Below are positions 30,521 to 52,805 of a DNA stretch of 64,000 bases, piece by piece. The stretch lies in the NCBI GenBank assembly GCA_020241125.1, contig GCA_020241125.1_4708.1; one strand, written 5' to 3'. The translations under genes were made by a program, and so were the position numbers. The notes beneath the pieces are model-generated. The model saw only the letters and a program-made list of their open reading frames with translations. It did no database searches and was not told where the DNA came from. The DNA is from a phage. Position 1 is the first letter of the stretch. Each line of letters starts with the position of its first letter.

Positions 30521-30880
30521 TTGCTATTAGCCCGTAAAGGCGACGGTGGCATGAAACTGAACATCGAAATGGGTATTGCGTACGATACCATGTTTGGCTT
30601 GTACGATCGTGTTAACGACTGGACGCCGTTGAAATGGGTTGCTCAGCATCCCGCTGAAGATCCCTGGGACAGATTGGGGATTAAACCCTTAATCGAAGAT
30701 TATGTCCGATTCGGTATTAAAGAGTTCATGACGCTGGATGCGTTTTTACAAGCACCGTATCCTTACGCGCAAACGGTACTCAAAATCGCACAAGACGAAC
30801 TGCGGAAACGTAGTGCGGTACTGGACGACGATGAGGACAAGTTACGACGAGAAGAAGAACGTTTACGAAACGGAAAATAA
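30521..30880 (+). CDS. Hypothetical small protein
   Basis: 119-aa ORF; start may be internal Met (MKLNIEMG). Confidence 0.45.
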   Translation: MLLARKGDGGMKLNIEMGIAYDTMFGLYDRVNDWTPLKWVAQHPAEDPWDRLGIKPLIEDYVRFGIKEFMTLDAFLQAPYPYAQTVLKIAQDELRKRSAVLDDDEDKLRREEERLRNGK

Positions 30881-30881
30881 A

Positions 30882-31391
30882 ATGGCGAGATTTACCAGTT
30901 TGATTGGGTTGGATATTTGGGAAACACCGGCTGACGTTCGGGTTATTCCTGTTAACACCGTCGGTGTGATGGGACGTGGTCTTGCCAAACAGGCAGCCGA
31001 TCGTGTACCCGGTCTTCTTGAAGCGTACCGTAAGCAATGTCAAGATGGGTTTAAGGTGGGCGAAGTCGTGTCGTATCAACACGGTGATAACGATCAACTC
31101 ACCTACGTGTTGTTTCCATCAAAATCGGATTGGCGTGAAAGAACACGACGCGAGTATATCGTTAACGGTTTACTGGCGTTAAAAGCATGGTTACTGGAGC
31201 TTCAGTTCGAAAGAGACGGCTTCTCATATCGGCGTCCGGCTGAACCGCTGATCGTTGCAATTCCTCCGGTTGGTTCTGGTTGCGGTAATATCGGTTACGG
31301 ACAATCCGAAACAATCCAGCCTCAGTGGGTACGCGCACAAATCAAACAGTATCTTGCCACCGTACCGAACGTTCATTTCTACTTGTTCTAA
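30882..31391 (+). CDS. Macrodomain protein (TARG1/DarG-like ADP-ribose processing fold)
   Basis: MARFTS... start immediately after stop of upstream gene; VIPVNTVGVMGRGLA, KVGEVV and IAIPPVGSGCGNIGY...W align by eye with TARG1 CISEDCRMGAGIA, KSGEVAV and MPRIGCGLDRLQW; the longer ORF-track start (30738) overlaps the upstream gene. Confidence 0.55.
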   Translation: MARFTSLIGLDIWETPADVRVIPVNTVGVMGRGLAKQAADRVPGLLEAYRKQCQDGFKVGEVVSYQHGDNDQLTYVLFPSKSDWRERTRREYIVNGLLALKAWLLELQFERDGFSYRRPAEPLIVAIPPVGSGCGNIGYGQSETIQPQWVRAQIKQYLATVPNVHFYLF

Positions 31392-35066: not shown

Positions 35067-35708
35067 TTAAATGTACTGCTTACCGCCCACGAAGGAAGTT
35101 AACCAGTTCCCGCTGACGAGTTGTGATACCCAGCCTGGAACGGCTCTACCATTCTGGCTCATGATGTTACCACACCAACCAGGGAATCCGGGACGGATGT
35201 AATAGAAAGTTAAATTGTAGAGATGGCAATTCCATACCGCAACGTTATGTTTACCAGAAACCGCTTTAAAGACAAACGCGACAGGTAACGGAGACGATAA
35301 CAATTCGGTCACAGGGACGGCTGACCAGTTCGCATTCGCGTTCCATGGTTGCCAGGTATGGCTGCGCGAGTCGCAATATACGTTACCGTTGTTACCGCGC
35401 CCACCCGCATTCCACCACAGCGACGGACTCATGTTCTTAAGTGAGGTAAATTGCTGCGGTGGAATATTAGGAATAATAACAGGGTTGGTACCTTGCCCAT
35501 GTTTCTTTTCTTTTGCGTTCACATACCCGCTTATCGATTCGAGGTATTTGACACCAGGATAATTATTCTGGACTTGTGTCGCAATATCACGAACATCGAA
35601 CGTCCAGCAGATCATGGTGTTGTAGTAAGCATCGGTGTTGTCGTACCATGCGTTACCATCTTGTAAACGTGCGCCACTATTCGGTGTTTTATCTGTGTTT
35701 ATAGCCAT
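35067..35708 (-). CDS. Hypothetical Trp/Asn/Gly-rich protein, paralog 1 (conserved C-terminal module)
   Basis: 213 aa; C-terminal ~45 aa (RPGFPGWCGNIMSQNGRAVPGWVSQLVSGNWLTSFVGGKQYI) nearly identical to C-terminus of 35820..36572 product. Confidence 0.55.
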   Translation of the reverse strand: MAINTDKTPNSGARLQDGNAWYDNTDAYYNTMICWTFDVRDIATQVQNNYPGVKYLESISGYVNAKEKKHGQGTNPVIIPNIPPQQFTSLKNMSPSLWWNAGGRGNNGNVYCDSRSHTWQPWNANANWSAVPVTELLSSPLPVAFVFKAVSGKHNVAVWNCHLYNLTFYYIRPGFPGWCGNIMSQNGRAVPGWVSQLVSGNWLTSFVGGKQYI

Positions 35709-35819: not shown

Positions 35820-36572
35820 TTAAATTGAAGTTAGATATTGTTTACCTCCAACAAACGACGTTAACCAATTACCTGAAACAAGTTGCGATGCCCAGCCAGG
35901 CACTGCCCTACCGTTCTGGCTCATCACGTTACCTGCCCATCCCGGAAAACCAGGTCGGAAAATATATACTTGAATATGTGTTAAAGCGTTATCATTACCA
36001 CCGCCAACAGCAACGTTACGACTCCCAGATGACGGGAAATATTCTTTTAAGAACAGAGGATCGGTTGCTAATAAAGATGCGGGCCAAGGGTTCGCGGATG
36101 CATCAACATCGAATTCGGTCCATCGCCATTTACGTCCCGTGTCGAACCATGTCGATGTACCACCACCCCTCACGGCAAGATTGCGCGCATCACGGACATT
36201 ATAAATTGATTCGATGTTACGCCATCCACCTTTTGCAGCGTTTGCTGCATAGCAAACCGCATTACCACCATTCTTCTTCTCGTAAACGGTTCGTTTGATA
36301 TGAACACGGTCGATGAACGCTTCACCGTATTTGTTGACGAGCGTTTGTGCGATATCACGAAGATCGTGCATGTGAAAAGCGATGTCTTCGTTATGGAACC
36401 ATGTTGTCTGGTTCCAGACGGTACCGTTTGGTTCGGCACACATCGATCGGATATTGTTGCGTTGATTAATCGCGATAAAACCCATTGTATACCTCGTTCC
36501 TATTCTCAAAAAGGAAATTTCATACGATGACGCCATAGCAGCTCCTCCTTCCCTTACGGGTTGGAGGAGCAT
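35820..36572 (-). CDS. Hypothetical Trp/Asn/Gly-rich protein, paralog 2 (conserved C-terminal module)
   Basis: 250 aa; shares C-terminal module and DVRDIAxxVxN-Y motif with 35067..35708 product. Confidence 0.55.
   Translation of the reverse strand: MLLQPVREGGAAMASSYEISFLRIGTRYTMGFIAINQRNNIRSMCAEPNGTVWNQTTWFHNEDIAFHMHDLRDIAQTLVNKYGEAFIDRVHIKRTVYEKKNGGNAVCYAANAAKGGWRNIESIYNVRDARNLAVRGGGTSTWFDTGRKWRWTEFDVDASANPWPASLLATDPLFLKEYFPSSGSRNVAVGGGNDNALTHIQVYIFRPGFPGWAGNVMSQNGRAVPGWASQLVSGNWLTSFVGGKQYLTSI
36541..36570 (-). terminator. Conserved palindromic hairpin (member 9)
   Basis: CATAGCA-GCTCCTCC-ttCCCttacGGGtt-GGAGGAGC-ATAC. Confidence 0.55.
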
Positions 36573-36578
36573 ACTTAA

Positions 36579-37085
36579 TTACTCGCTGATAACCTCAACG
36601 GAATTGGGATCAGCGATCATCGCACGGTCAGTAGAACAATTGAAGAAGACCATGCCGACACCATCGCCGTTCGAGTTCAGGGTTGAACTTACGTAAGACA
36701 GGGTTGGTTTATTCATGCGGTAGAAGCGTTCGCTGGTTGCGGTATTGAACCCCAGGTCAACGTAGTCTTTCACCGTGGTGTACAACTGTGTGGACTCGAA
36801 AACGGTTACCGGAGAGTCGACGGTAAATTGACTACCTTCGTCTACAACCAGAACTTTATCGTTCCAGATTTCAGTGGTTGAGAACTTCGGTTTCCAATGT
36901 TCGAATTCCTGGGTTGCACCCCAGCAAGAATACACAGCGAGATTGCTGTTCTTCTCAACAGGTTTCAACCCCACCAGTTGTGTCAGGTCTTTATCCAGGT
37001 TCGGTAAGCCTTCCAGCGTAGCACACCCACCCAGAGAAAGTACCATCAACATACCAAGAACGATCGCACAAAGTTTCTTCATCAT
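36579..37085 (-). CDS. Putative lipoprotein
   Basis: 168 aa; N-terminus MMKKLCAIVLGMLMVLSLGGC is a classic signal peptide with lipobox (LGGC). Confidence 0.6.
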   Translation of the reverse strand: MMKKLCAIVLGMLMVLSLGGCATLEGLPNLDKDLTQLVGLKPVEKNSNLAVYSCWGATQEFEHWKPKFSTTEIWNDKVLVVDEGSQFTVDSPVTVFESTQLYTTVKDYVDLGFNTATSERFYRMNKPTLSYVSSTLNSNGDGVGMVFFNCSTDRAMIADPNSVEVISE

Positions 37086-37133
37086 TAGATTTCCTTATGT
37101 GTTAACGGAAGTGACTTCCATAAGGATTGATGA

Positions 37134-40100
37134 TTACTTTTTGAGCGCTTTAAGTTCTTCTTCCATCGCTTCCACTTTTGCCGTAAGCTTCTGTACTTGT
37201 TTGATTAATGGAACCACCAAACGTTCGTACATAACACCTTCGGCGACGAGTCCGTTAGAAGAAACGATAGCGGGGTCATCTTCTTCGGTTGCATCACGCC
37301 AATGCACGTATTGTGGTGCGATCTCACCAACCTCTTCGGCAATCAACCCATACCAACCCCAATCCTTGTTGTCGGCTTCGCAGGTAGAACGATACCAGAC
37401 AGGACGCATCTCCAATACTTTATCCGCTTGTTCATCCGTGATATTCTCGATATCTTTCTTATAGCGCCGCGACGACGTTGAACGAAACACATTGTTGATC
37501 CCAGCAGTAGGACTGATATACATATTAGCCCCGCTGGTTGTAGTGCTAATGTCCCATACCGCAAATCCGCCGTTACTCCCATTTCTCACGACCAACGTAT
37601 TGGCAATAATATCCAGGTTATTGTTGTAACCGGTTAACTGGTTTTCGGTGACAAAATCGGATAAGTTAACGGAGTAGTTCTTGCTGTTATAACAACGACG
37701 CCATCCTGGGCTGTTGGTGCTGCCATTATAGTTGTCGTAGCTATAAATGAACTCGGAGTTGGTTTTCGCACCACTGACGGAAGACGTGGTTGCGGTGGTA
37801 ACACGGATAGTGTAGTTCGTCATCCCGAAGCTAACGACCTCGATAACCGCACCAGCCAGAGGAATAATACCACATTTGGTTTCACTGTCTGGGATGTATG
37901 CGCTATCGGCAGCAGCGAAGGAGCAACGTGCGACCCAGGCACGGGTATTGAATGCACCTTGGTTCTGTAATAACGTAATAAACGATGAGGTCGTAATCGA
38001 GCTGTTATTATCACCTGTGATCAACCAGCCGGTTGGACATGCGGTAGCACCAACGTTTTTCGCTGTTAGCGTGATGTTCTTCGATCCGTCGAAGGCTACG
38101 CCGCTGATGGTACGTGCAGTCTGTAGCTTCGTCGCCGTTGCCGCGTTCCCTGATGTGTTCTGGTTGCCTGTTGTATTCACACCCGGGATACTATCCTTAG
38201 ATGTGTAGATCTGTGCCCATTCCGACCATTTCGCATCGGTTGAATCACGACGTGAACGTAGGTAAGCTGGAGCGTGTGCACCCGAGGTACCTGACCATCC
38301 AATGAGGATTTCACCTTCGCCGACCGATGAAGCGCCTTTAAGATGAACAACGTTACCGTAGGCTGTAGGGTATCCGTTATTGTACGCTTCATACATCTGG
38401 ATACCCGTATTGCTGCCCTGGGTCGCATTAGCTAAAGCGGTAACCCGTCCCTTGGAAGCGAGCACGTTAATGCTAAAGCTAATATCGGTTGTACCGTCAA
38501 AGGCGACCCCATTAATCCTCCGCGCTGTTTGGAGTTTCGTGGCAGTAGCCGCATTACCAGAGGTACTCTGATTGCCTGCTTTGTTCACACCTGGTAAATC
38601 AATGTTGGCGGTTCCATCAAAGGACACGCCCCCTATGGTTCTCGCCGTCTGAAGTTTTGTTGCTGAACCAGCGTTTCCGGAAGTGCTTTGATTACCCGTC
38701 GCGTTGACACCTGGTAGGTTAATGCTAGCAGAACCATCAAAAGAAACTCCACCGATCGTAATAGCTGTTCGCAACTTCGTGGCTGTCGCAGCGTTACCCG
38801 TCGTATTCTGATTACCAGCTGCATTGACGCCAGGTAATGCGATATCAGCTGTGCCATCGAACGCGACACCTCCGATTTTACGGGCGGTTTGTAGCTTGGT
38901 TGCTGTAGCAGCATTACCGCTGGTATTTTGCGTACCGGCTTTATTTACACCAGGAAGATCGATGTTAGCAGAACCATCGAAGCTGACGCCACCTATCGTT
39001 CTTGCAGTAGCAAGTTTAGCGGCTGTAGCAGCGACGTTACCGACTTTTAACCATTCTCCCCATGGACCATCCACACCGTTCCATGATGCCGTTAAACTGC
39101 GCACGTATATGTTTCCTGTACGTACTGTGTAACGTTGTGTTCCACCGAATTGACCGGCTGGGAGCACTTCGATGTAACCTACAGCATTTGCTTCAGGGAA
39201 ATTGTGGGCAGCATCGGCATTCGTTGATGTTTGTTTGGACCAAATACCCACAGACGCTTCAACCGGACCGTAGGTATCCAGATTTGCATCGGTGGGGAGC
39301 TGTCCTCGAAAACGTCGGAATAATGAAGCCGATAACCCCAACGTTGTTTGCATCCCTTCAATGCTTGACTGCGATAGAAGCGCCCGAGCTGTCGACGTGA
39401 TGGCCGCTAAAGCAACCTTATCCGTACCGGTAAAAAACGGGAATTTGTTTGCTGATGTTGCTAAACCTGAAAGGGCGGTCAGTAATGCGTTAAGGGGTTG
39501 TTTCCCGGCTAGCGCGTTAGTCACAGTCGTTGCAAAGTTTGGATCATTACCTAACGCTTGAGCTAACTCGTTAAGCGTATTTAGCGCTTCTGGAGACGAG
39601 TCGATCAGCGACGCGATAGCACGCATCACAAATTCCGTGTTGGCGATCTGTTGACTGCTATCGTTCTCTGCAGCCGTAGGTGCTGCTGGGATACCGGTGA
39701 ACACAGGGTTATTAAGATCCGCCTTAAGGGCGATGAGACGTCTAAGTGCTTCAACATCGACTTTCAGGTTTTCCCATCCGACGAGATAACCATCACCGGT
39801 TGTGTGATAACGGTTGTACCAAAAATCGCCATTAACGCCAAAATAAAATATTCCCTTCTCTTCGTATTGTGGGCCAGAACTGTTCCGTGATGAGCTAATG
39901 TATTTTATTTCGATAAGGCCGTTGAATACCACTCCTGGGATAATTTTGTCGTTTCCAGACGATTGCGATACCTGGTAAGCCCCCGGTGTTGTGGCTCTAA
40001 CCCAAGTCAAGAATTCTGATGTTCCAGCGTTACCGCTAAAACGCTTGACGTCGGTAAGTATCGCACCAAAACCGAACATACCGGGTAAAGCAACTCGCCC

Positions 40101-40691
40101 ATCGGTACGGTCACGAATATCTGTTGCAACAACAGGCAACTGCTTACGAACATCATTAACTGCTTTAGGTGTCGCTGATTTTGTCTCATCGTCGCTATCG
40201 ATATCACTGCTCAGGATGGTCAGTCCTCGAGTATCTGTGGTTGCATCAGGAAGAAACGCGTTATCTAACACCTTAAGCTGTATCGCATCCGTGTTATTAA
40301 CAACAACATACACTTGACAGTTAAGAACGCTGGTTGCGCCTTCGGTAGGCACAGGCTTGTATCTTTCTGGTGCACTGCATACGGCGACCAGAACACCTTG
40401 ATTGTCATACAGACCGATCTCACGTACCCAGAACCCACCTTGACTGGCAGGAATAATACCCTCAACAATAATCCTGGTTGTGTCGTCAACATCAATACGG
40501 ATGTTGGAAACTTCCCCACGATAAACTTCGTGTACAAGTGCTGTTTGGCTAGCATCGGGGGTTGGTGTAGAACCGTTGCCATCACCAACGGCAAAATGCG
40601 TAATTCTTAGTTTCTCACCGTCAGGAAGTAATGCTGCGGTGATACGTTCAGCGCCTTTATCGGTAATGACCGTTTTATAAGTTGTACTCAT
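37134..40691 (-). CDS. Long tail fibre protein with C-terminal intramolecular chaperone (peptidase S74-like) domain
   Basis: 1185 aa; N-terminal region resembles phage tail-fibre N-termini (P2 gpH-like; LIDSSPEALNTLNELAQALGNDPNFATTVTNALAGKQP); about 6 tandem ~38-aa repeats (GGVSFDGSANIDLPGVN...ATATKLQTAR); C-terminus SSRRYKKDIENI...WYGLIAEEVGEIAPQYV...LVVPLIKQVQKL matches S74 chaperone domain pattern. Confidence 0.75.
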   Translation of the reverse strand: MSTTYKTVITDKGAERITAALLPDGEKLRITHFAVGDGNGSTPTPDASQTALVHEVYRGEVSNIRIDVDDTTRIIVEGIIPASQGGFWVREIGLYDNQGVLVAVCSAPERYKPVPTEGATSVLNCQVYVVVNNTDAIQLKVLDNAFLPDATTDTRGLTILSSDIDSDDETKSATPKAVNDVRKQLPVVATDIRDRTDGRVALPGMFGFGAILTDVKRFSGNAGTSEFLTWVRATTPGAYQVSQSSGNDKIIPGVVFNGLIEIKYISSSRNSSGPQYEEKGIFYFGVNGDFWYNRYHTTGDGYLVGWENLKVDVEALRRLIALKADLNNPVFTGIPAAPTAAENDSSQQIANTEFVMRAIASLIDSSPEALNTLNELAQALGNDPNFATTVTNALAGKQPLNALLTALSGLATSANKFPFFTGTDKVALAAITSTARALLSQSSIEGMQTTLGLSASLFRRFRGQLPTDANLDTYGPVEASVGIWSKQTSTNADAAHNFPEANAVGYIEVLPAGQFGGTQRYTVRTGNIYVRSLTASWNGVDGPWGEWLKVGNVAATAAKLATARTIGGVSFDGSANIDLPGVNKAGTQNTSGNAATATKLQTARKIGGVAFDGTADIALPGVNAAGNQNTTGNAATATKLRTAITIGGVSFDGSASINLPGVNATGNQSTSGNAGSATKLQTARTIGGVSFDGTANIDLPGVNKAGNQSTSGNAATATKLQTARRINGVAFDGTTDISFSINVLASKGRVTALANATQGSNTGIQMYEAYNNGYPTAYGNVVHLKGASSVGEGEILIGWSGTSGAHAPAYLRSRRDSTDAKWSEWAQIYTSKDSIPGVNTTGNQNTSGNAATATKLQTARTISGVAFDGSKNITLTAKNVGATACPTGWLITGDNNSSITTSSFITLLQNQGAFNTRAWVARCSFAAADSAYIPDSETKCGIIPLAGAVIEVVSFGMTNYTIRVTTATTSSVSGAKTNSEFIYSYDNYNGSTNSPGWRRCYNSKNYSVNLSDFVTENQLTGYNNNLDIIANTLVVRNGSNGGFAVWDISTTTSGANMYISPTAGINNVFRSTSSRRYKKDIENITDEQADKVLEMRPVWYRSTCEADNKDWGWYGLIAEEVGEIAPQYVHWRDATEEDDPAIVSSNGLVAEGVMYERLVVPLIKQVQKLTAKVEAMEEELKALKK
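38080..39060 (-). repeat. Intragenic tandem coding repeats (~114 bp units) within the tail fibre gene
   Basis: Repeated peptide unit visible in translation; DNA units diverged but periodic. Confidence 0.6.
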
Positions 40692-40697
40692 GGCGTT

Positions 40698-41225
40698 TTA
40701 TCCCGGGTAAATAGTGATGACATCACCGATGACAGTTGCCGCACCGGCGCAAAGATACGCTGGTGATGTATCACGCTGGTTTGTCACGATAAGATCCAAT
40801 TGCCCACGCCAAACCATGGAGGTATTCGCGATGGGAATCGAGATCTTCTTGGAAGTATCGTCACGAAAATTAATGGCGGTAGCAAGGGTAGCTGAATCAA
40901 AATCAACGTCGGGTTCAAAGTTGAAACCGTATTGATCCGAAATAGCTTGAATAACCGCTCTTATGGTTGTTGTTTCAACCGACTCCAAAACGATTTTTAT
41001 CGGTATTCCTAGAAATGCTTTCGCTATATCACGCCGTGTGTAAGTGATAAAACTTTCACCACACCACCTTGTTCCTTCATTTGCTGTGACGATCACTTTT
41101 GCCCTGTTAACACCAGAACTCCCATCCAGGGTTAAAGTGAGATCGGAGTTGCTGAATACACTACTGTTACGTTGGTTTATCAACGTAATAAGTTCGTCTT
41201 TCCATGGTGGGTAAAGTGAACGCAT
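40698..41225 (-). CDS. Short protein carrying only the shared receptor-binding-protein N-terminal anchor domain
   Basis: Start set at ATG 41225 (MRSLYPPWKDE) preceded by GGAGGAGGG; ORF-track start at 41408 would run through the upstream hairpin; product shares RRDIAKAFLGIPIKI...YGFNFEPDVDF with other RBP N-termini. Confidence 0.5.
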   Translation of the reverse strand: MRSLYPPWKDELITLINQRNSSVFSNSDLTLTLDGSSGVNRAKVIVTANEGTRWCGESFITYTRRDIAKAFLGIPIKIVLESVETTTIRAVIQAISDQYGFNFEPDVDFDSATLATAINFRDDTSKKISIPIANTSMVWRGQLDLIVTNQRDTSPAYLCAGAATVIGDVITIYPG

Positions 41226-41338
41226 AAGCGCACCCTCCTCCAACAATCGAATTAATATGCAAAAACGCCTCGAAACAGGAGTGCGATTCGAGGCTAACGT
41301 AAACAGTCTTAACGACCGCATAAAATTCCGCGCATATT

Positions 41339-41371
41339 GCCCCTCTATCCCGACAAAGCGAGATAGAGGGG
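41339..41371 (-). terminator. Palindromic hairpin (member 10)
   Basis: CATATTG-CCCCTCTATC-ccgacaaagcga-GATAGAGGGG. Confidence 0.5.
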
Positions 41372-41383
41372 AGGATAATACGA

Positions 41384-43153
41384 TTATGCTGCTACATATC
41401 CAGGCCAACGTTCTCTTGGCCAGTTTGTTGCGCCCTGTCCAACGTTGTCCTTACCAGAAATTACATTACTTACGTCCCAACCACTAAGATCCTGGTTAAA
41501 TGCGGTGTTGTTACGCATCATGAGGTCGATATTACGTAATGATTGGGTATTCCAGCCGGAAATGTCTTGGTTGAATGCCGTGTTGTAAGCAAACATGTTA
41601 ACAACGTTTTGTAATTTTGAAGTGTTCCAGCCGCTAATATCGCCATTGAACTGCATGCTCGAGAACATACTGCTAGCATCGATAAGACTATCTGTTTTCC
41701 AGTTAACCAGCTTGTTTTCATCAAGTGCGTTGCAACTACTGAACATGTAACTCATGTTGTTAACTTTGGATACATCCCATTTATCTAACCCGTTACCAAC
41801 GAACTCGTAACAAGCTTGGAACATCCAGCTCATGTCGGTAACCTGGCTCACATTCCATTTGCTAAAGTCGAGGTTGAGTTTTGCGCATCCGGAGAAAGTT
41901 TTATACATACTGGTGATACGACTAACATCCCATTCTTGAATGTTAGGATCATTAAGTATAGATAAGAATTGGAACAATCCGTCTAACGACGTCCATTTCT
42001 CTGGAATACGGTTTGGTACTGTACGGAGCGATGAAAGGTTATTGGTTGACGGAGAGCGGAACATACCGTTATCCCAATTTACGATTTCCGTAATGTTGTA
42101 CCCACGGATCGTTTGGCGTCCATTACCATTATACACAGACCCTGTTGCAGTTATTGTATATTCGTTTGTATCAGCATACGTATGTTCAGCCTGTGTAGGC
42201 CACTCACCTATTACATCCCTATTCCCATCACCCCAATCGATGGAAATATTTGTCCAACCATCAAGATCTAGGGTAACGGTCCCGCCATTGGTCTTCAGGA
42301 TGTATTTACCTGCATTGTCGGTATAATAACAAACGATCATCGCACCGTATAGGTTACCAATTTGCCAATCATCCTTTTCTGTTACCGCTATTTGCGCTGT
42401 ACCACGTTGTAAGAAAAGCACCGTACGGTTGTCGTCAGTCTGTAACGCGGTTAATGCTTGAGCTTTGTCGTCGCCGGTAATTTCACCAGCTTCCACTAAA
42501 GCATTTAACATTCTTTCAAAGTATTCGATGGGTAATTGGTGTCCTACAGACATGTCAACTGATGGAAGAATGAGATCATCTAATGCTGCGGCAGTTGCAA
42601 GGACTAATGATCCCTTGGTGGGGTCTGTTTCTTGGAGGTAACGTAGTCCCGTAATCTGGTATGCTTGAATGATTGTAATCAGATCCAGCGTATCGTTAAT
42701 GACCTGTATCTGTAAATGCCCAGACCAAACATAGCTGCTTTCAGCAATTGGTAATTCGACCGCCTGAATACCTGACGTTTCAAAGCTGATCTTTTTATTA
42801 AGATCGGTTTCCAGGAAATCAACCGCGAGATCGAAATTTATACCGTACTTTTCAGCGATGGAATCTACGATGTTTCTGAAAGCAACATCGGTACTTACGA
42901 TAAAACGTAACGGGATTCCTGCAAATGCATTAGAGATATCTCGACGAACATATGTGAGTGACTGCTCGAAGAAATACGGGCTGTTATCTCCAGGCTTGAT
43001 GGTTATCTGGCACACCTCAGGGTGTTCAGCTGGGATGAACGATTCGAATTTAACATCGGATTCTTTCAACGAAAGCTTGTTCTTCCGGTTTACCAACGCC
43101 AGAAGATCGGCTTTCCATCCAGGATAAACTGTAGACATAAGCACTCCAATCAT
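41384..43153 (-). CDS. Receptor-binding protein with DUF285/BspA-like repeats and shared N-terminal anchor
   Basis: 589 aa (start possibly at internal Met MSTVYPGW); N-terminal anchor homologous to other RBPs; C-terminal repeated units FxxxxAFNQDISGWNTxxLxNxxxMF typical of DUF285/BspA-type repeats. Confidence 0.6.
   Translation of the reverse strand: MIGVLMSTVYPGWKADLLALVNRKNKLSLKESDVKFESFIPAEHPEVCQITIKPGDNSPYFFEQSLTYVRRDISNAFAGIPLRFIVSTDVAFRNIVDSIAEKYGINFDLAVDFLETDLNKKISFETSGIQAVELPIAESSYVWSGHLQIQVINDTLDLITIIQAYQITGLRYLQETDPTKGSLVLATAAALDDLILPSVDMSVGHQLPIEYFERMLNALVEAGEITGDDKAQALTALQTDDNRTVLFLQRGTAQIAVTEKDDWQIGNLYGAMIVCYYTDNAGKYILKTNGGTVTLDLDGWTNISIDWGDGNRDVIGEWPTQAEHTYADTNEYTITATGSVYNGNGRQTIRGYNITEIVNWDNGMFRSPSTNNLSSLRTVPNRIPEKWTSLDGLFQFLSILNDPNIQEWDVSRITSMYKTFSGCAKLNLDFSKWNVSQVTDMSWMFQACYEFVGNGLDKWDVSKVNNMSYMFSSCNALDENKLVNWKTDSLIDASSMFSSMQFNGDISGWNTSKLQNVVNMFAYNTAFNQDISGWNTQSLRNIDLMMRNNTAFNQDLSGWDVSNVISGKDNVGQGATNWPRERWPGYVAA
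41416..41956 (-). repeat. DUF285/BspA-like coding repeats (~69 bp period)
   Basis: Repeated SGWN(T/V)S...N...MF units in translation; periodic DNA similarity. Confidence 0.5.
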
Positions 43154-47754: not shown

Positions 47755-48330
47755 TTAATGAGGAATCAGATCGTTAAGCTTTTCTTCTTCAATGACAAAG
47801 AAGTTGTTCTGGTCGTCTAAATCTGTTAACAGGACTTGTCCGACAGTAAAGCACGTACCGCCCTTCTTAGGCACCCATACCGGCTCATTCGTTACCTTAT
47901 CGGGATACCATTTGAAACGATTGGTATCCAAGAAGAACGCTGCTTTGTTTGCTTTATCGGTTGAACGATAGCTAACCAATGCAGGCCACTCAATCCAGGT
48001 GTTTGTGCATGGTACATGTAAAGGATACCATGCGCGCCAGCGTTTGCCCGGACTGTTAGGATCAACCCAATACTCGGCAGTCAATACAGCATCTTTATAA
48101 TGTTTCTGCATTAACATTTCGAGCACAAGCTCATTGCCTTTTGATGCGTCTAAAGTCACTTCCGTCATATAAAGAGATTTAGGTAATTCAGACTGTTTTG
48201 CGGGTGTTACAACACCGGTAACCAACGGTCTGCTCGGTTTACGTTTCTGTTCTTTCCGACGTGTGTAAAAGAATAGTCCGATAGATACAGCAACAAGTAT
48301 AATAAACAACACTACCTTAATCCAATTCAT
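47755..48330 (-). CDS. Hypothetical membrane-anchored protein
   Basis: 191 aa; N-terminal hydrophobic segment MNWIKVVLFIILVAVSIGLFFY followed by a basic stretch. Confidence 0.5.
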   Translation of the reverse strand: MNWIKVVLFIILVAVSIGLFFYTRRKEQKRKPSRPLVTGVVTPAKQSELPKSLYMTEVTLDASKGNELVLEMLMQKHYKDAVLTAEYWVDPNSPGKRWRAWYPLHVPCTNTWIEWPALVSYRSTDKANKAAFFLDTNRFKWYPDKVTNEPVWVPKKGGTCFTVGQVLLTDLDDQNNFFVIEEEKLNDLIPH

Positions 48331-49593: not shown

Positions 49594-50091
49594 TTACGTG
49601 TGTCGTCGTTTACCAAAGAAAATGTGGCTATCTACCACGGTGATATTGGTAGCATGTTTTCTGAAATGTTTAGGGCGAAGATGTTTCGCGTTAAAGAATA
49701 CGGCTCCTCGTGTTGGGTCGGCTTTATGGTAAGCCGCAATGTCAGTATAACGTAATGTTGCGACCTCTCGTGCTATTGCTCTTGCTCGCTCAAAAGCAGC
49801 ATGATCGCGTATGACAATACGCCTTTGTTTTGTCCAGGGGAATTGACCTCTTTGCAGTACGACGTCTCTGACGTTCGTAGGGAATCGGTAGTCCATAGAT
49901 CGATTATGTATTAAAAACGCCACGGAGTATTGCCCTTTTACAGATTCGCCTCTGGCTTCCATATACACAGCGCATGCGACGATCTCTTTCCGGCAATCGA
50001 TTCTAGGTCCTGCGTTCACCGATGCTTGACTGAACGGTGTGATAAGCAACATAACAAGCCCTAAAATCAACGTGTGTAAAATACCTTGCAT
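49594..50091 (-). CDS. Secreted SleB-like cell-wall hydrolase (candidate endolysin)
   Basis: N-terminal signal peptide (MQGILHTLILGLVMLLITPFSQASVNA); CAVYMEARGES matches the hallmark YxEARGE motif of SleB/CwlJ-type hydrolases. Confidence 0.6.
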   Translation of the reverse strand: MQGILHTLILGLVMLLITPFSQASVNAGPRIDCRKEIVACAVYMEARGESVKGQYSVAFLIHNRSMDYRFPTNVRDVVLQRGQFPWTKQRRIVIRDHAAFERARAIAREVATLRYTDIAAYHKADPTRGAVFFNAKHLRPKHFRKHATNITVVDSHIFFGKRRHT

Positions 50092-50344
50092 CTTAATAAC
50101 CTCACGATAAGGTGCTGTCCACTGGCGTCTTGATAACGCATCCCGTCTATCGGGTTGTTCTATTCAGCGGGCAGCAGGTTAGCGTCAGATGTTTGCCCGA
50201 CATCCACGACAGAAATAAACGGTACTGAAAATACGGTCTCCTCTGGTTTGGCAATAAACATAACGTTGGATAACAGAACCCATTTCCCGCATCCAACGCG
50301 GTAAAGGTGTACATCGTTTGAAGTCATATAGTTTCTCAAAGATG

Positions 50345-50749
50345 TTAACCTCTACCGTCGAGCCATAGGTTGTATTTATCCCGAACATACGGCTCACGAT
50401 AAATACGTCGATAGACTTGATGCGGTATAAACTTGCAATGTACGAGTTCGTCGCTTAATTTATGCCGTCGCTCCATACCGTTGTGAATACGACGTATCTC
50501 CCGGATATTAAAGGTTGTTTTATTCAAGAGAATAGACATAATGGCGGATCGATGATCCAGATTAAAGATCGCCATCACGCTTCGTATCTCGCGTAAAACA
50601 ACTTCTCTATCGACAAGGATGCGATTAGTTAACTTAAGATTCTCCGTGATACCCATAACCTTCATCCTCGACACGTCGACACATCGGTAAAAATAAACAC
50701 CAGCTTGTTGCACTGAGGACCGCCGTTGCGACGATATTTGCGATATCAC
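50345..50749 (-). CDS. Hypothetical protein (uncertain)
   Basis: 134-aa ORF overlapping neighbouring ORFs in other frames; start uncertain. Confidence 0.3.
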   Translation of the reverse strand: MISQISSQRRSSVQQAGVYFYRCVDVSRMKVMGITENLKLTNRILVDREVVLREIRSVMAIFNLDHRSAIMSILLNKTTFNIREIRRIHNGMERRHKLSDELVHCKFIPHQVYRRIYREPYVRDKYNLWLDGRG

Positions 50750-51005
50750 TCAATCGAGCATCGGCTTGCCACATAACAAGCATGAAAAGAACGTACGCGA
50801 ACCCATACACGACAAACCGTTTTATGTTACGCGTCGACCATGTACAAATATACAAAAGGGGAAGCTGCCCTATAACACAAACGATGGTTCGGATAACGTA
50901 ATAAACGCGTTCCGTCGTTGTTTCAAAATCGATATTCGTTGCAGAAATCCCAATCATTATAAAAGTGAAAATGAAATAGATTTTTGCGTATGTCTTTAAA
51001 CTCAT
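50634..51005 (-). CDS. Small multi-pass membrane protein (holin-like candidate)
   Basis: 123 aa with several hydrophobic segments (IYFIFTFIMIGISA, VIRTIVCVIGQLPLLYI, VVYGFAYVLFMLVMW). Confidence 0.45.
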   Translation of the reverse strand: MSLKTYAKIYFIFTFIMIGISATNIDFETTTERVYYVIRTIVCVIGQLPLLYICTWSTRNIKRFVVYGFAYVLFMLVMWQADARLSDIANIVATAVLSATSWCLFLPMCRRVEDEGYGYHGES

Positions 51006-51021
51006 GGCTTTTCCCGATCGT

Positions 51022-51255
51022 TTATTTGTGTTTTCCTACATTCCTCAACAAGGTAACGATAACGAATACCGCTATCATCAAGAAGACGAACCATAACCCT
51101 ACGTTAATTCGGGCAGCAGGTTCATCGACCATGAAGAACATCATCCCACAAAACCCAATGACCATCCATGCTAGAACCATCCCCGTTAATCCCCGTAGTA
51201 GCATATGTCCCATCATGAACTCCTTCTTACTTTTTCTGATAAAGCGATGATTCAA
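51022..51255 (-). CDS. Small two-TM membrane protein
   Basis: 77 aa; hydrophobic segments LTGMVLAWMVIGFCGMMFFMV and LWFVFLMIAVFVIVTLL. Confidence 0.45.
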   Translation of the reverse strand: MNHRFIRKSKKEFMMGHMLLRGLTGMVLAWMVIGFCGMMFFMVDEPAARINVGLWFVFLMIAVFVIVTLLRNVGKHK

Positions 51256-51617: not shown

Positions 51618-51968
51618 TTATTTACCCAGATAGAGATATTCAGCGCCCTGAACAACGCCGGTTGTTGGATCAACCAGTACGCGAACCCGTGCGTAGGTCT
51701 TGAAAGAGGGATTGAAAACTTCGAAGTCGGCCACTTTCAATTTCACGCTGGGATTGATAGGGTTCTTAACTCCTGGAAGTTCTTTCGGTAATCCGAAGTC
51801 GACTCCATATTCTTCAAGGTCTGCTGGCGTCATGCTCTCCATGGCCATGTAGACCGCTTTTGCTTTATCGTAAACTTCCGGGCTATCCAACAATCCAGCC
51901 TGCGCTGAACCGACAACACTACCGAACAGAATAGCAACAGCAACAAACAATTTAGTTAACGTTTTCAT
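51618..51968 (-). CDS. Small secreted protein
   Basis: 116 aa; signal peptide MKTLTKLFVAVAILFGSVVGSAQA. Confidence 0.5.
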   Translation of the reverse strand: MKTLTKLFVAVAILFGSVVGSAQAGLLDSPEVYDKAKAVYMAMESMTPADLEEYGVDFGLPKELPGVKNPINPSVKLKVADFEVFNPSFKTYARVRVLVDPTTGVVQGAEYLYLGK

Positions 51969-52006: not shown

Positions 52007-52429
52007 TTAACGTACGGCCGCTACACTGTTAGCGCATGCCTGAATATCATCGGTATTTACGATGATGGTTTCGTTAAACGCACGAATACGCGCACGACGT
52101 GCTTCTTTAAGGCTGGCGATTGCGTTAGCAGCTTGATCTGTATTCGCAAGGCTAATAACTGGGATCAAGCGCATGTCCGGACTGCAGATATTCAATGCCT
52201 GGTATACACGTCCATTGATTCCTACGGTATCAGACATCGGATAGTGCGCACGGCATTGAAATTGACCCATGACAACAAGCGAACGATCTGAGATACCAAT
52301 CTGATAACGACCATCTTCACTGTAGGCGTAGCAGTTATTCCCACGAGCCATCCAGTTAGCCTGTGCTTGCGTGCTAACAAAAGCCAGGGTGGTGACGATA
52401 GCGAATACGATATTTTTGAACAGTTTCAT
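52007..52429 (-). CDS. Small secreted protein
   Basis: Start set at internal Met (MKLFKNIVFAIVTTLAFVSTQAQA signal peptide) because the ORF-track start at 52498 runs through a terminator hairpin. Confidence 0.5.
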   Translation of the reverse strand: MKLFKNIVFAIVTTLAFVSTQAQANWMARGNNCYAYSEDGRYQIGISDRSLVVMGQFQCRAHYPMSDTVGINGRVYQALNICSPDMRLIPVISLANTDQAANAIASLKEARRARIRAFNETIIVNTDDIQACANSVAAVR

Positions 52430-52465
52430 GATAAAGATCCTTATTGAAATAAAATCGGTATAAAG

Positions 52466-52482
52466 GCCCCCATTTAGGGGGA
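52466..52482 (-). terminator. Short GC hairpin, putative terminator
   Basis: CCCCC-ATTTA-GGGGG hairpin immediately downstream of gene 52488..52805, followed by U-rich sequence on the minus transcript. Confidence 0.45.
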
Positions 52483-52487
52483 CCTGA

Positions 52488-52805
52488 TTAGTTTGCACGT
52501 AAGAAATGACCTAGAACCGTTACAATTGGAAACAGTCCTGTAACCGTATTATCACCCGAAAACATCATCTTTGAGTCGTTAACGGTGATGAAACGGATGT
52601 CGGTTGCGGATCCGTCGATAGCGACAAAACGCATTGAGTTCGGTGGAAGATCCTCAACAACTTCCACGAGGTGTTCACGATTTTCAAAGGCTTCTTTAAC
52701 ACGACGCATGAAACGAATCAATGTTCCTTCAGCGTCGGCTTCCAAATGACCTAAGATATCGCGATTATTGCGAATAGCGAATACAGACATTTTAAACATA
52801 CACAT
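52488..52805 (-). CDS. Hypothetical small protein
   Basis: 105-aa ORF; preceded by conserved promoter/leader element (copy B). Confidence 0.5.
   Translation of the reverse strand: MCMFKMSVFAIRNNRDILGHLEADAEGTLIRFMRRVKEAFENREHLVEVVEDLPPNSMRFVAIDGSATDIRFITVNDSKMMFSGDNTVTGLFPIVTVLGHFLRAN

Follow-up and report, generated by a model that had tools for sequence, protein, structure and literature searches.

A conserved lipoprotein with a predicted tethered beta-barrel in the host-recognition cluster of Goslar-like jumbo phages

The Lipoprotein Gene and Its Immediate Surroundings

The window analyzed here is a stretch of 64,000 nucleotides from a close relative of the Escherichia coli jumbo phage Goslar. 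On its minus strand, a gene coding for a protein of 168 amino acids lies between a long tail-fibre gene and a gene for a 250-residue protein. The features of this region are the following:

37134..40691, minus strand: long tail-fibre gene, 1185 aa, the 5' neighbour, with Phage_tail_fib, Phage_fiber_2 and Peptidase_S74 domains
37092..37096, minus strand: Shine-Dalgarno sequence AAGGA, 6 nt 5' of the first ATG (from the sequence)
36579..37085, minus strand: lipoprotein gene, 168 aa (from the ORF list and the sequence)
37026..37085, minus strand: signal peptide, residues 1-20, with n-region MMKK, h-region LCAIVLGMLMVLSL and lipobox LGG (from the sequence; an equivalent exists in every homologue)
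37023..37025, minus strand: codon of Cys21, the predicted lipid-attachment site
36951..37022, minus strand: predicted flexible tether, about residues 22-45 (AlphaFold2 model; site of an indel between clades)
36621..36950, minus strand: predicted 8-stranded beta-barrel, about residues 46-155, with Cys54 and Cys150 (AlphaFold2)
35820..36572, minus strand: gene for a 250-aa protein starting 6 nt past the lipoprotein stop, a gp87 paralogue absent from Goslar (from the ORF list)

The lipoprotein gene starts with the ATG at 37085 and ends with a TAA stop at 36579-36581. Its product has the N-terminus MMKKLCAIVLGMLMVLSLGGC followed by ATLEG, and the signal reads MMKKLCAIVLGMLMVLSLGG followed by C, with an alanine at position +2. 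We used as criterion a positive n-region, an h-region and a lipobox [LVI][ASTVI][GAS]C located about 15 to 35 residues from the start, and the protein presents all of them: two lysines, a hydrophobic core of 14 residues and the lipobox L-G-G-C ending at Cys21. The initial annotation had described, with no strand given, a lipoprotein gene at 36579-37085 with an LGGC lipobox, immediately downstream of the long tail-fibre gene. All this is borne out, as the reading frame occupies exactly this interval and follows the fibre-gene stop on the same strand after 48 nt.

The lipoprotein assignment rests on this sequence pattern and on its conservation, the lipobox cysteine being invariant in all homologues at 25-97% identity (alignments A1, A2 and A3). 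Scanned in six frames for lipoboxes, the window yielded no further credible lipoprotein among its real genes, and gp88, the Goslar orthologue, is likewise the sole credible one in the whole 237-kb Goslar genome. Because the signal is the only credible one in both and its cysteine is kept down to 25% identity, it is more than a chance occurrence. A short lipobox reading frame embedded within Goslar_00152 was rejected as spurious, its mature peptide having just 23 amino acids. The alanine at +2 means that the aspartate signal for inner-membrane retention is absent, and it predicts sorting to the outer membrane in enterobacteria.

The interval from the fibre gene to the lipoprotein gene showed no terminator-like site, nor did any promoter of sigma-70 type or any terminator stand out around the latter, in a scan that is uninformative for phage RNA polymerases. 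The 48-nt spacer (37086-37133, minus strand) can fold as a modest hairpin (-12.9 kcal/mol, z-score -2.1), in which the Shine-Dalgarno sequence and the two start codons of the lipoprotein gene are paired; translational damping or coupling of the gene is possible.

Distribution and Conservation of the Family

The protein of the window is the orthologue of Goslar gp88 (Goslar_00088, YP_009820773.1), with 95.4% nucleotide and 97.6% amino acid identity. An identical protein is recorded in assemblies of E. coli O157 isolates, on contigs of about 238 kb, and its 90%-identity cluster holds 258 members, which come from isolates of E. coli, Salmonella and Shigella; no copy of the gene was found in complete E. 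coli RefSeq genomes. These isolate records agree with a study in which Goslar-like phages nearly always came from bacterial assemblies, as 'persistent' phages (10.1101/2024.12.31.630880). In view of the identical protein in O157 assemblies, the window itself probably derives from such a persistent Goslar-like phage in a bacterial isolate, and not from an isolated phage.

Farther away, tblastn traced the family, at an identity of about 30%, to 55 phage records, which all belong to enterobacterial jumbo phages: SPN3US-like phages of Salmonella and E. coli, Erwinia phages and one Proteus phage. Word-indexed searches retrieved 6, then 14 proteins, and an exhaustive profile search of 1.84 billion representatives gave 15 matches. 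Three of the proteins matched in the homologue searches (P0007, P0012 and P0017) were discarded as spurious repeat proteins. Judged from these searches, the family appears to be tiny and confined to the nucleus-forming jumbo phages of enterobacteria, where it is carried by both Goslar-like and Seoul-like phages; its member in SPN3US is gp159. The lipoprotein has no match in Pfam, NCBIfam, PADLOC or the PDB sequences, and its sole PHROG match is phrog_9559, of unknown function. One Erwinia homologue carries the label 'DUF2846', which Pfam scans of 15 members failed to reproduce.

Besides the lipobox cysteine, two further cysteines, C54 (36924-36926) and C150 (36636-36638), are invariant in every family member, as are D82/G84, S98, R120-x-Y122-R123 and G140-x-G142. 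The conservation of the export and lipidation signal together with that of the cysteine pair argues strongly for a periplasmic, oxidized protein.

A Rebuilt Host-Recognition Locus

The gene order of the window (fibre, lipoprotein, gp87 paralogues, gp86) was compared with that of Goslar. The backbone proteins of the two phages are 95-99% identical, and the lipoprotein follows them with its 97.6%. The fibre protein, which carries Phage_tail_fib at the N-terminal (E 9e-42) and Peptidase_S74 at the C-terminal, matches Goslar gp90 over residues 1-888, while its final 297 residues or so, the presumed receptor-binding end, are replaced. The new end (about 37134-38030, minus strand), with its Peptidase_S74 self-chaperone, has no Goslar counterpart; Goslar has instead a longer fibre and a separate Caudo_TAP tail-fibre assembly gene, missing from the window, which intervenes there between the fibre and lipoprotein genes. 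The sequences present a clean example of a swap of fibre tip and chaperone module between near-identical jumbo phages. Since the lipoprotein remained 97.6% identical despite this replacement, its evolution is, as judged from this sequence comparison, not coupled to that of the fibre tip next to it; it may be linked to the conserved gp86 or gp92.

The window has also gained two genes of host-recognition type with respect to Goslar. The first (41384-43153, minus strand) codes for a protein of 589 residues, which begins with a DUF7941 module and ends with DUF285 (BspA-like repeat) domains; Goslar lacks it at this position. It resembles proteins of the distant Goslar-like contigs L008 and L009, and is probably an extra host-recognition protein. 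The second is the 250-aa gene following the lipoprotein gene, whose product is 36% identical to Goslar gp87 and has no match in Pfam or PHROG. With the next gene (35067-35708, minus strand; 213 aa) it forms a pair of paralogues, 36% identical overall, which share a near-identical C-terminal of about 45 residues, PGFPGW..GN.MSQNGRAVPGW.SQLVSGNWLTSFVGGKQY. Goslar has the 213-aa gene alone (gp87), present at about 19 copies per virion (10.64898/2026.04.21.720040). These two paralogues, devoid of family match, have the appearance of interchangeable adhesin tips mounted on one shared attachment domain. Another reading frame of the locus (40698-41408, minus strand; 236 aa) has a TTG start and overlaps the gene upstream. 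Because the alignment of Goslar gp91 begins only at its residue 62 (MRSLYPPWK...), translation probably begins at the internal ATG near 41225, and the product would then be a DUF7941 protein of 175 residues.

In more distant relatives, the neighbours of the lipoprotein gene are different again. It comes after a 1024-aa fibre and a DUF4376 protein in L009, is flanked on both sides by DUF7941 proteins in L008, and has a 1375-aa protein upstream in L007, a third distant Goslar-like contig. In SPN3US and in the Erwinia phage pEa_SNUABM_43 it stands alone, divergent from the gene of the small DUF7941 protein gp160 and 1.6-3 kb from an endolysin. What is conserved across relatives is therefore the location of the lipoprotein inside a host-recognition cassette, and not its position after a long fibre.

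Predicted Structure of the Mature Protein

After removal of the signal, the mature lipoprotein has 148 residues (about 16 kDa), of which 6 are prolines (4%). An earlier AlphaFold model, built from 7 close sequences, had a pLDDT of 34. With 15 diverse sequences, AlphaFold2 predicted for the mature protein an 8-stranded beta-barrel with a pLDDT of 79 and a pTM of 0.75. The pLDDT falls below 50 for mature residues 1-12, and the first strand begins near mature residue 30. In the tether region which precedes the barrel, an indel separates the Goslar-like from the SPN3US-like clade. No specific structural or sequence relative was found for the modelled mature protein.

Presence in Virion Preparations

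Goslar gp88 (YP_009820773.1) is listed in a recent preprint as a high-copy 'virion-associated' protein of unknown function (10.64898/2026.04.21.720040). LC-MS/MS of CsCl-purified Goslar detected it with 20 peptides and 77.8% coverage, and quantified it at about 737 copies per virion, with a range of 491-1158 (10.64898/2026.04.21.720040); the peptides ALIADPNSVEVISK and DLTQLVGLKPVEK confirm that the protein is indeed gp88. A coverage of 77.8% fits the loss of the N-terminal 31 residues, and equally fits another combination of peptides; the marker for an uncleaved signal is the peptide LCAIILGMLMVLSLGGCATLEGLPNLDK. A search of the preprint text for the terms 'signal peptide', 'lipoprotein', 'outer membrane' and 'receptor' found no mention of them (10.64898/2026.04.21.720040).

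The same preparation contained many host proteins. The portion of the supplementary table consulted holds at least some 1480 host and at least some 420 phage peptide entries, a ratio of about 3:1, and includes OmpA, OmpC, OmpF, Lpp and Pal (10.64898/2026.04.21.720040). Among the peptides listed there, the best areas are 879,000 for OmpA and 203,000 for OmpC, to be compared with 529,000 and 329,000 for the best two of gp88 (10.64898/2026.04.21.720040). The authors themselves note the carry-over of PhuZ and chimallin, and report the secreted gp104 and thymidylate synthase at tens of copies per virion (10.64898/2026.04.21.720040). In SPN3US, gp159 is absent among the 86 virion proteins, while its neighbour gp160 is abundant; the CsCl preparation of this phage was without known non-virion proteins.

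Given the lipoprotein signal, the similar level of OmpA and the absence of gp159 from SPN3US virions, co-purification with outer membrane is the likelier explanation for the presence of gp88. The simplest reading is that of an abundant late outer-membrane lipoprotein carried along on outer-membrane fragments. The initial annotation considered that localization to virions would refute a role in receptor masking. Nominally gp88 does localize there, with about 740 copies per virion, but OmpA, OmpC and OmpF are comparable in the same sample and gp159 is missing from SPN3US particles, so that the observation is not decisive against receptor masking. More generally, we caution that the figure of about 740 copies should not be taken as evidence for a structural role, because the signal for export and lipidation of gp88 is conserved and the protein goes together with the outer-membrane proteins of the host in this preparation.

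Just upstream of the putative holins, the genes at 51618-51968 and 52007-52498 (both minus strand) code for small proteins that correspond to Goslar gp103 and gp104 and carry signal peptides of the cleavable type. The presence of gp104 at about 39 copies per virion (10.64898/2026.04.21.720040) is another sign of co-purification of envelope or periplasmic proteins with virions.

A Possible Role in Superinfection Exclusion

The protein is best described as a conserved, abundant lipoprotein, predicted to lie at the outer membrane and to form a tethered beta-barrel, specific to the jumbo phages of Enterobacterales and encoded in their host-recognition cluster. Concerning its function, our best guess, which we hold tentatively, is superinfection exclusion or prevention of readsorption, by analogy with the logic of T5 Llp, Rtp45 and Cor, without homology to them and without matching to the tip of the long fibre.

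T5 Llp and Rtp45 of phage Rtp are lipoproteins of the inner leaflet of the outer membrane whose genes stand beside receptor-binding genes; they act from the periplasm and prevent adsorption to infected cells and to debris (PMC9586334; PMC12685063). The gp88 protein resembles them in its predicted location and in its gene neighbourhood, and differs from them by a mature chain of 148 instead of about 60 residues, with a long tether and a beta-barrel. It also differs from Llp in an expression which is suggested to be late rather than early, and in its lack of co-variation with the neighbouring fibre tip. Phages of the phi80, N15 and T1 type encode Cor, a small outer-membrane exclusion protein, just downstream of their tail or host-specificity genes. 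Cor is much smaller than gp88 and linked to FhuA-dependent phages, and our searches found no homology between the two.

In the mechanism we propose, a tether of about 25 residues would hold a disulfide-closed 8-stranded barrel in the periplasm, on the inner side of the outer membrane. The gene is packed in a same-strand run of fibre and DUF7941 host-recognition genes. The protein would accumulate to a high level by the time of lysis and would act from the periplasmic face on a conserved component of the enterobacterial envelope. Infected cells, and possibly their debris, would thus resist adsorption or injection when they meet the same phage or its relatives.

Several observations support such a role. 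The invariance of the lipobox cysteine and of the two other cysteines points to an oxidizing, periplasmic location, and the gene always stays within the host-recognition cassette, in the window as in five related contexts, even though its neighbours vary. Locally, the lack of a terminator-like site after the fibre gene and the 6 nt separating the lipoprotein gene from the next one are in keeping with a presumed late co-transcription. The restriction of the family to phages of Enterobacterales is expected if the partner is part of the host envelope. The level of gp88, similar to that of OmpA in Goslar preparations, suggests a stoichiometric role at the outer membrane. In SPN3US, gp159 is absent from the 86 virion proteins. 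Moreover, lipoproteins that block the receptor and have their genes next to receptor-binding ones form an established class (PMC9586334; PMC12685063), and Goslar-like and Seoul-like phages, which carry the family, are the clusters that most often persist in bacterial isolates (10.1101/2024.12.31.630880).

Other observations argue against it. Our searches revealed no resemblance to Llp or Rtp45 in sequence or fold and no match by PADLOC, and the mature protein has 16 kDa versus about 6-7 kDa for the known exclusion lipoproteins. The lipoprotein is conserved like the phage backbone while the locus around it has a different fibre tip, lacks the assembly gene and has gained two genes of host-recognition type. 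Its position in the structural operon suggests late expression, whereas Llp acts early. Finally, efficient masking of the receptor should stop outer-membrane fragments from sticking to the particles, yet the peptide entries consulted show outer-membrane proteins to be abundant in the Goslar preparation. The comparison with Llp made in the initial annotation consequently holds in part: the lipoprotein nature, the position in a host-recognition cluster and the size larger than that of Llp are all confirmed, but the protein has no similarity to Llp or Rtp45 and does not seem to be tuned to the fibre tip.

If superinfection exclusion or prevention of readsorption is the true role, no factor of this kind would have been described before gp88 in a nucleus-forming jumbo phage. 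Among exclusion lipoproteins it would represent a new and larger structural type, with a beta-barrel on a tether in place of a peptide-like protein of 6 kDa. It could also account in part for the finding that, of all virulent phages, the Goslar-like and Seoul-like ones persist most often in bacterial isolates.

Other Possible Functions

An unlikely but conceivable function is that of a periplasmic inhibitor of peptidoglycan hydrolases, similar in function to MliC, PliC and PhiA or to T4 Spackle. Such an inhibitor would restrain the phage's own secreted cell-wall hydrolase until lysis, or else the tail lysozyme of superinfecting phages. However, gp88 matches no family HMM of the MliC, PliC and PhiA lysozyme inhibitors and its conserved residues differ from theirs, while the comparison with Spackle is functional only. 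We consider rather unlikely that the barrel serves to bind a ligand, in the way of lipocalin, Blc or YceI, without any role in exclusion. Its ligand would be a lipid, an LPS precursor or another small molecule, and its binding would condition or stabilize the outer membrane during the long cycle of a jumbo phage.

It is improbable that gp88 is genuinely virion-associated, either coating the virions or their cloud of DUF7941 fibres after lysis, or being packaged unexported, and acting at the next infection. Its high coverage and copy number in CsCl-purified Goslar, 4-6 times above the acknowledged contaminants PhuZ and chimallin, would be in keeping with this idea, as would the location of its gene among those of virion host-recognition proteins. 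But gp88 was not placed in the cryoEM atomic model of Goslar and is more than 17 times as abundant as the neighbouring fibre protein gp90, present at about 43 copies (10.64898/2026.04.21.720040). In addition, a conserved Sec/SPII signal and a cysteine pair are ill-suited to assembly in the cytoplasm, and both the abundance of host proteins in the Goslar sample, with a best OmpA peptide above those of gp88 and strong OmpC and OmpF among the entries consulted, and the absence of gp159 from the SPN3US list speak against it.

The alternative of the initial annotation, an o-spanin-like component of lysis, is disfavoured by our results. We consider it very unlikely that gp88 disrupts the outer membrane at lysis together with an unlinked inner-membrane partner. 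The arguments for this function come mostly from Goslar, where gp88 is the sole credible lipoprotein gene and where Goslar_00247 resembles an i-spanin: its transmembrane segment is combined with a long helical part in the periplasm and a pair of cysteines at the C-terminus, but it has neither an adjacent nor an embedded lipoprotein gene. In the window, the gene is on the same strand as a cluster of putative holin and hydrolase genes and about 12 kb downstream of it. The o-spanins such as lambda Rz1 and phiKZ gp141.1 are, as is predicted for gp88, phage outer-membrane lipoproteins with periplasmic cysteines. Spanin pairs are defined by i-spanin genes in adjacent, overlapping or embedded arrangement (PMC12894885), and no i-spanin gene in such an arrangement was found in the window, Goslar, SPN3US, pEa_SNUABM_43, L007, L008 or L009. 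The cognate i-spanin which the initial annotation proposed to look for is not next to the gene, whose flanking fibre gene and gp87 paralogue both code for proteins devoid of a transmembrane segment. In contrast to the short proline-rich o-spanins, the mature protein is a globular barrel of 148 residues with 4% proline. It shows no similarity to the spanins of phiKZ, of which gp141/gp141.1 is the experimentally defined pair (PMC12894885), and no homologues of the phiKZ lysis proteins were detectable in Goslar. Finally, SPN3US carries a separate spanin-like pair, gp204/gp205, in addition to gp159, which makes an o-spanin function improbable as the ancestral role of the family.

Least probable of all is that gp88 is a true lipoprotein of the infectious particle which helps to breach or remodel host membranes on arrival; it would then be a lipid-anchored protein working on a non-enveloped tailed phage. 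The particle would acquire it from the outer membrane at lysis, onto the cloud of DUF7941 fibres, or package it with its hydrophobic N-terminus intact, and it could contribute, for example, to the early infection vesicle, bound by a membrane, into which chimalliviruses inject.

Lysis Genes and Other Observations

The spanin-like pair of SPN3US (JN641803, 180017-180976) is unannotated and lies beside an RNase H gene. It has the look of a canonical i-spanin/o-spanin pair: gp204 presents a transmembrane segment and a helical domain, and gp205 a lipobox LLTGC followed by a proline-rich mature start. Goslar_00247 (MK327938, 234664-235215), which is located outside the window, is syntenic to gp204.

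A putative lysis cluster, in which no spanin pair is evident, occupies positions 49594-51255 of the window (minus strand). It contains a SleB-like Hydrolase_2 protein (49594-50091), which starts with a signal or signal-anchor sequence, and, upstream of it, proteins of 123 aa (50634-51005) and 77 aa (51022-51255) that have three and two transmembrane segments, respectively. The product of 47755-48330, of 191 aa, has a transmembrane segment near its N-terminus. Just past the structural operon, and on the opposite strand, a Macro-domain protein (30738-31391, plus strand; Pfam E 2e-5; Goslar_00083) may reverse ADP-ribosylation as an anti-defence function.
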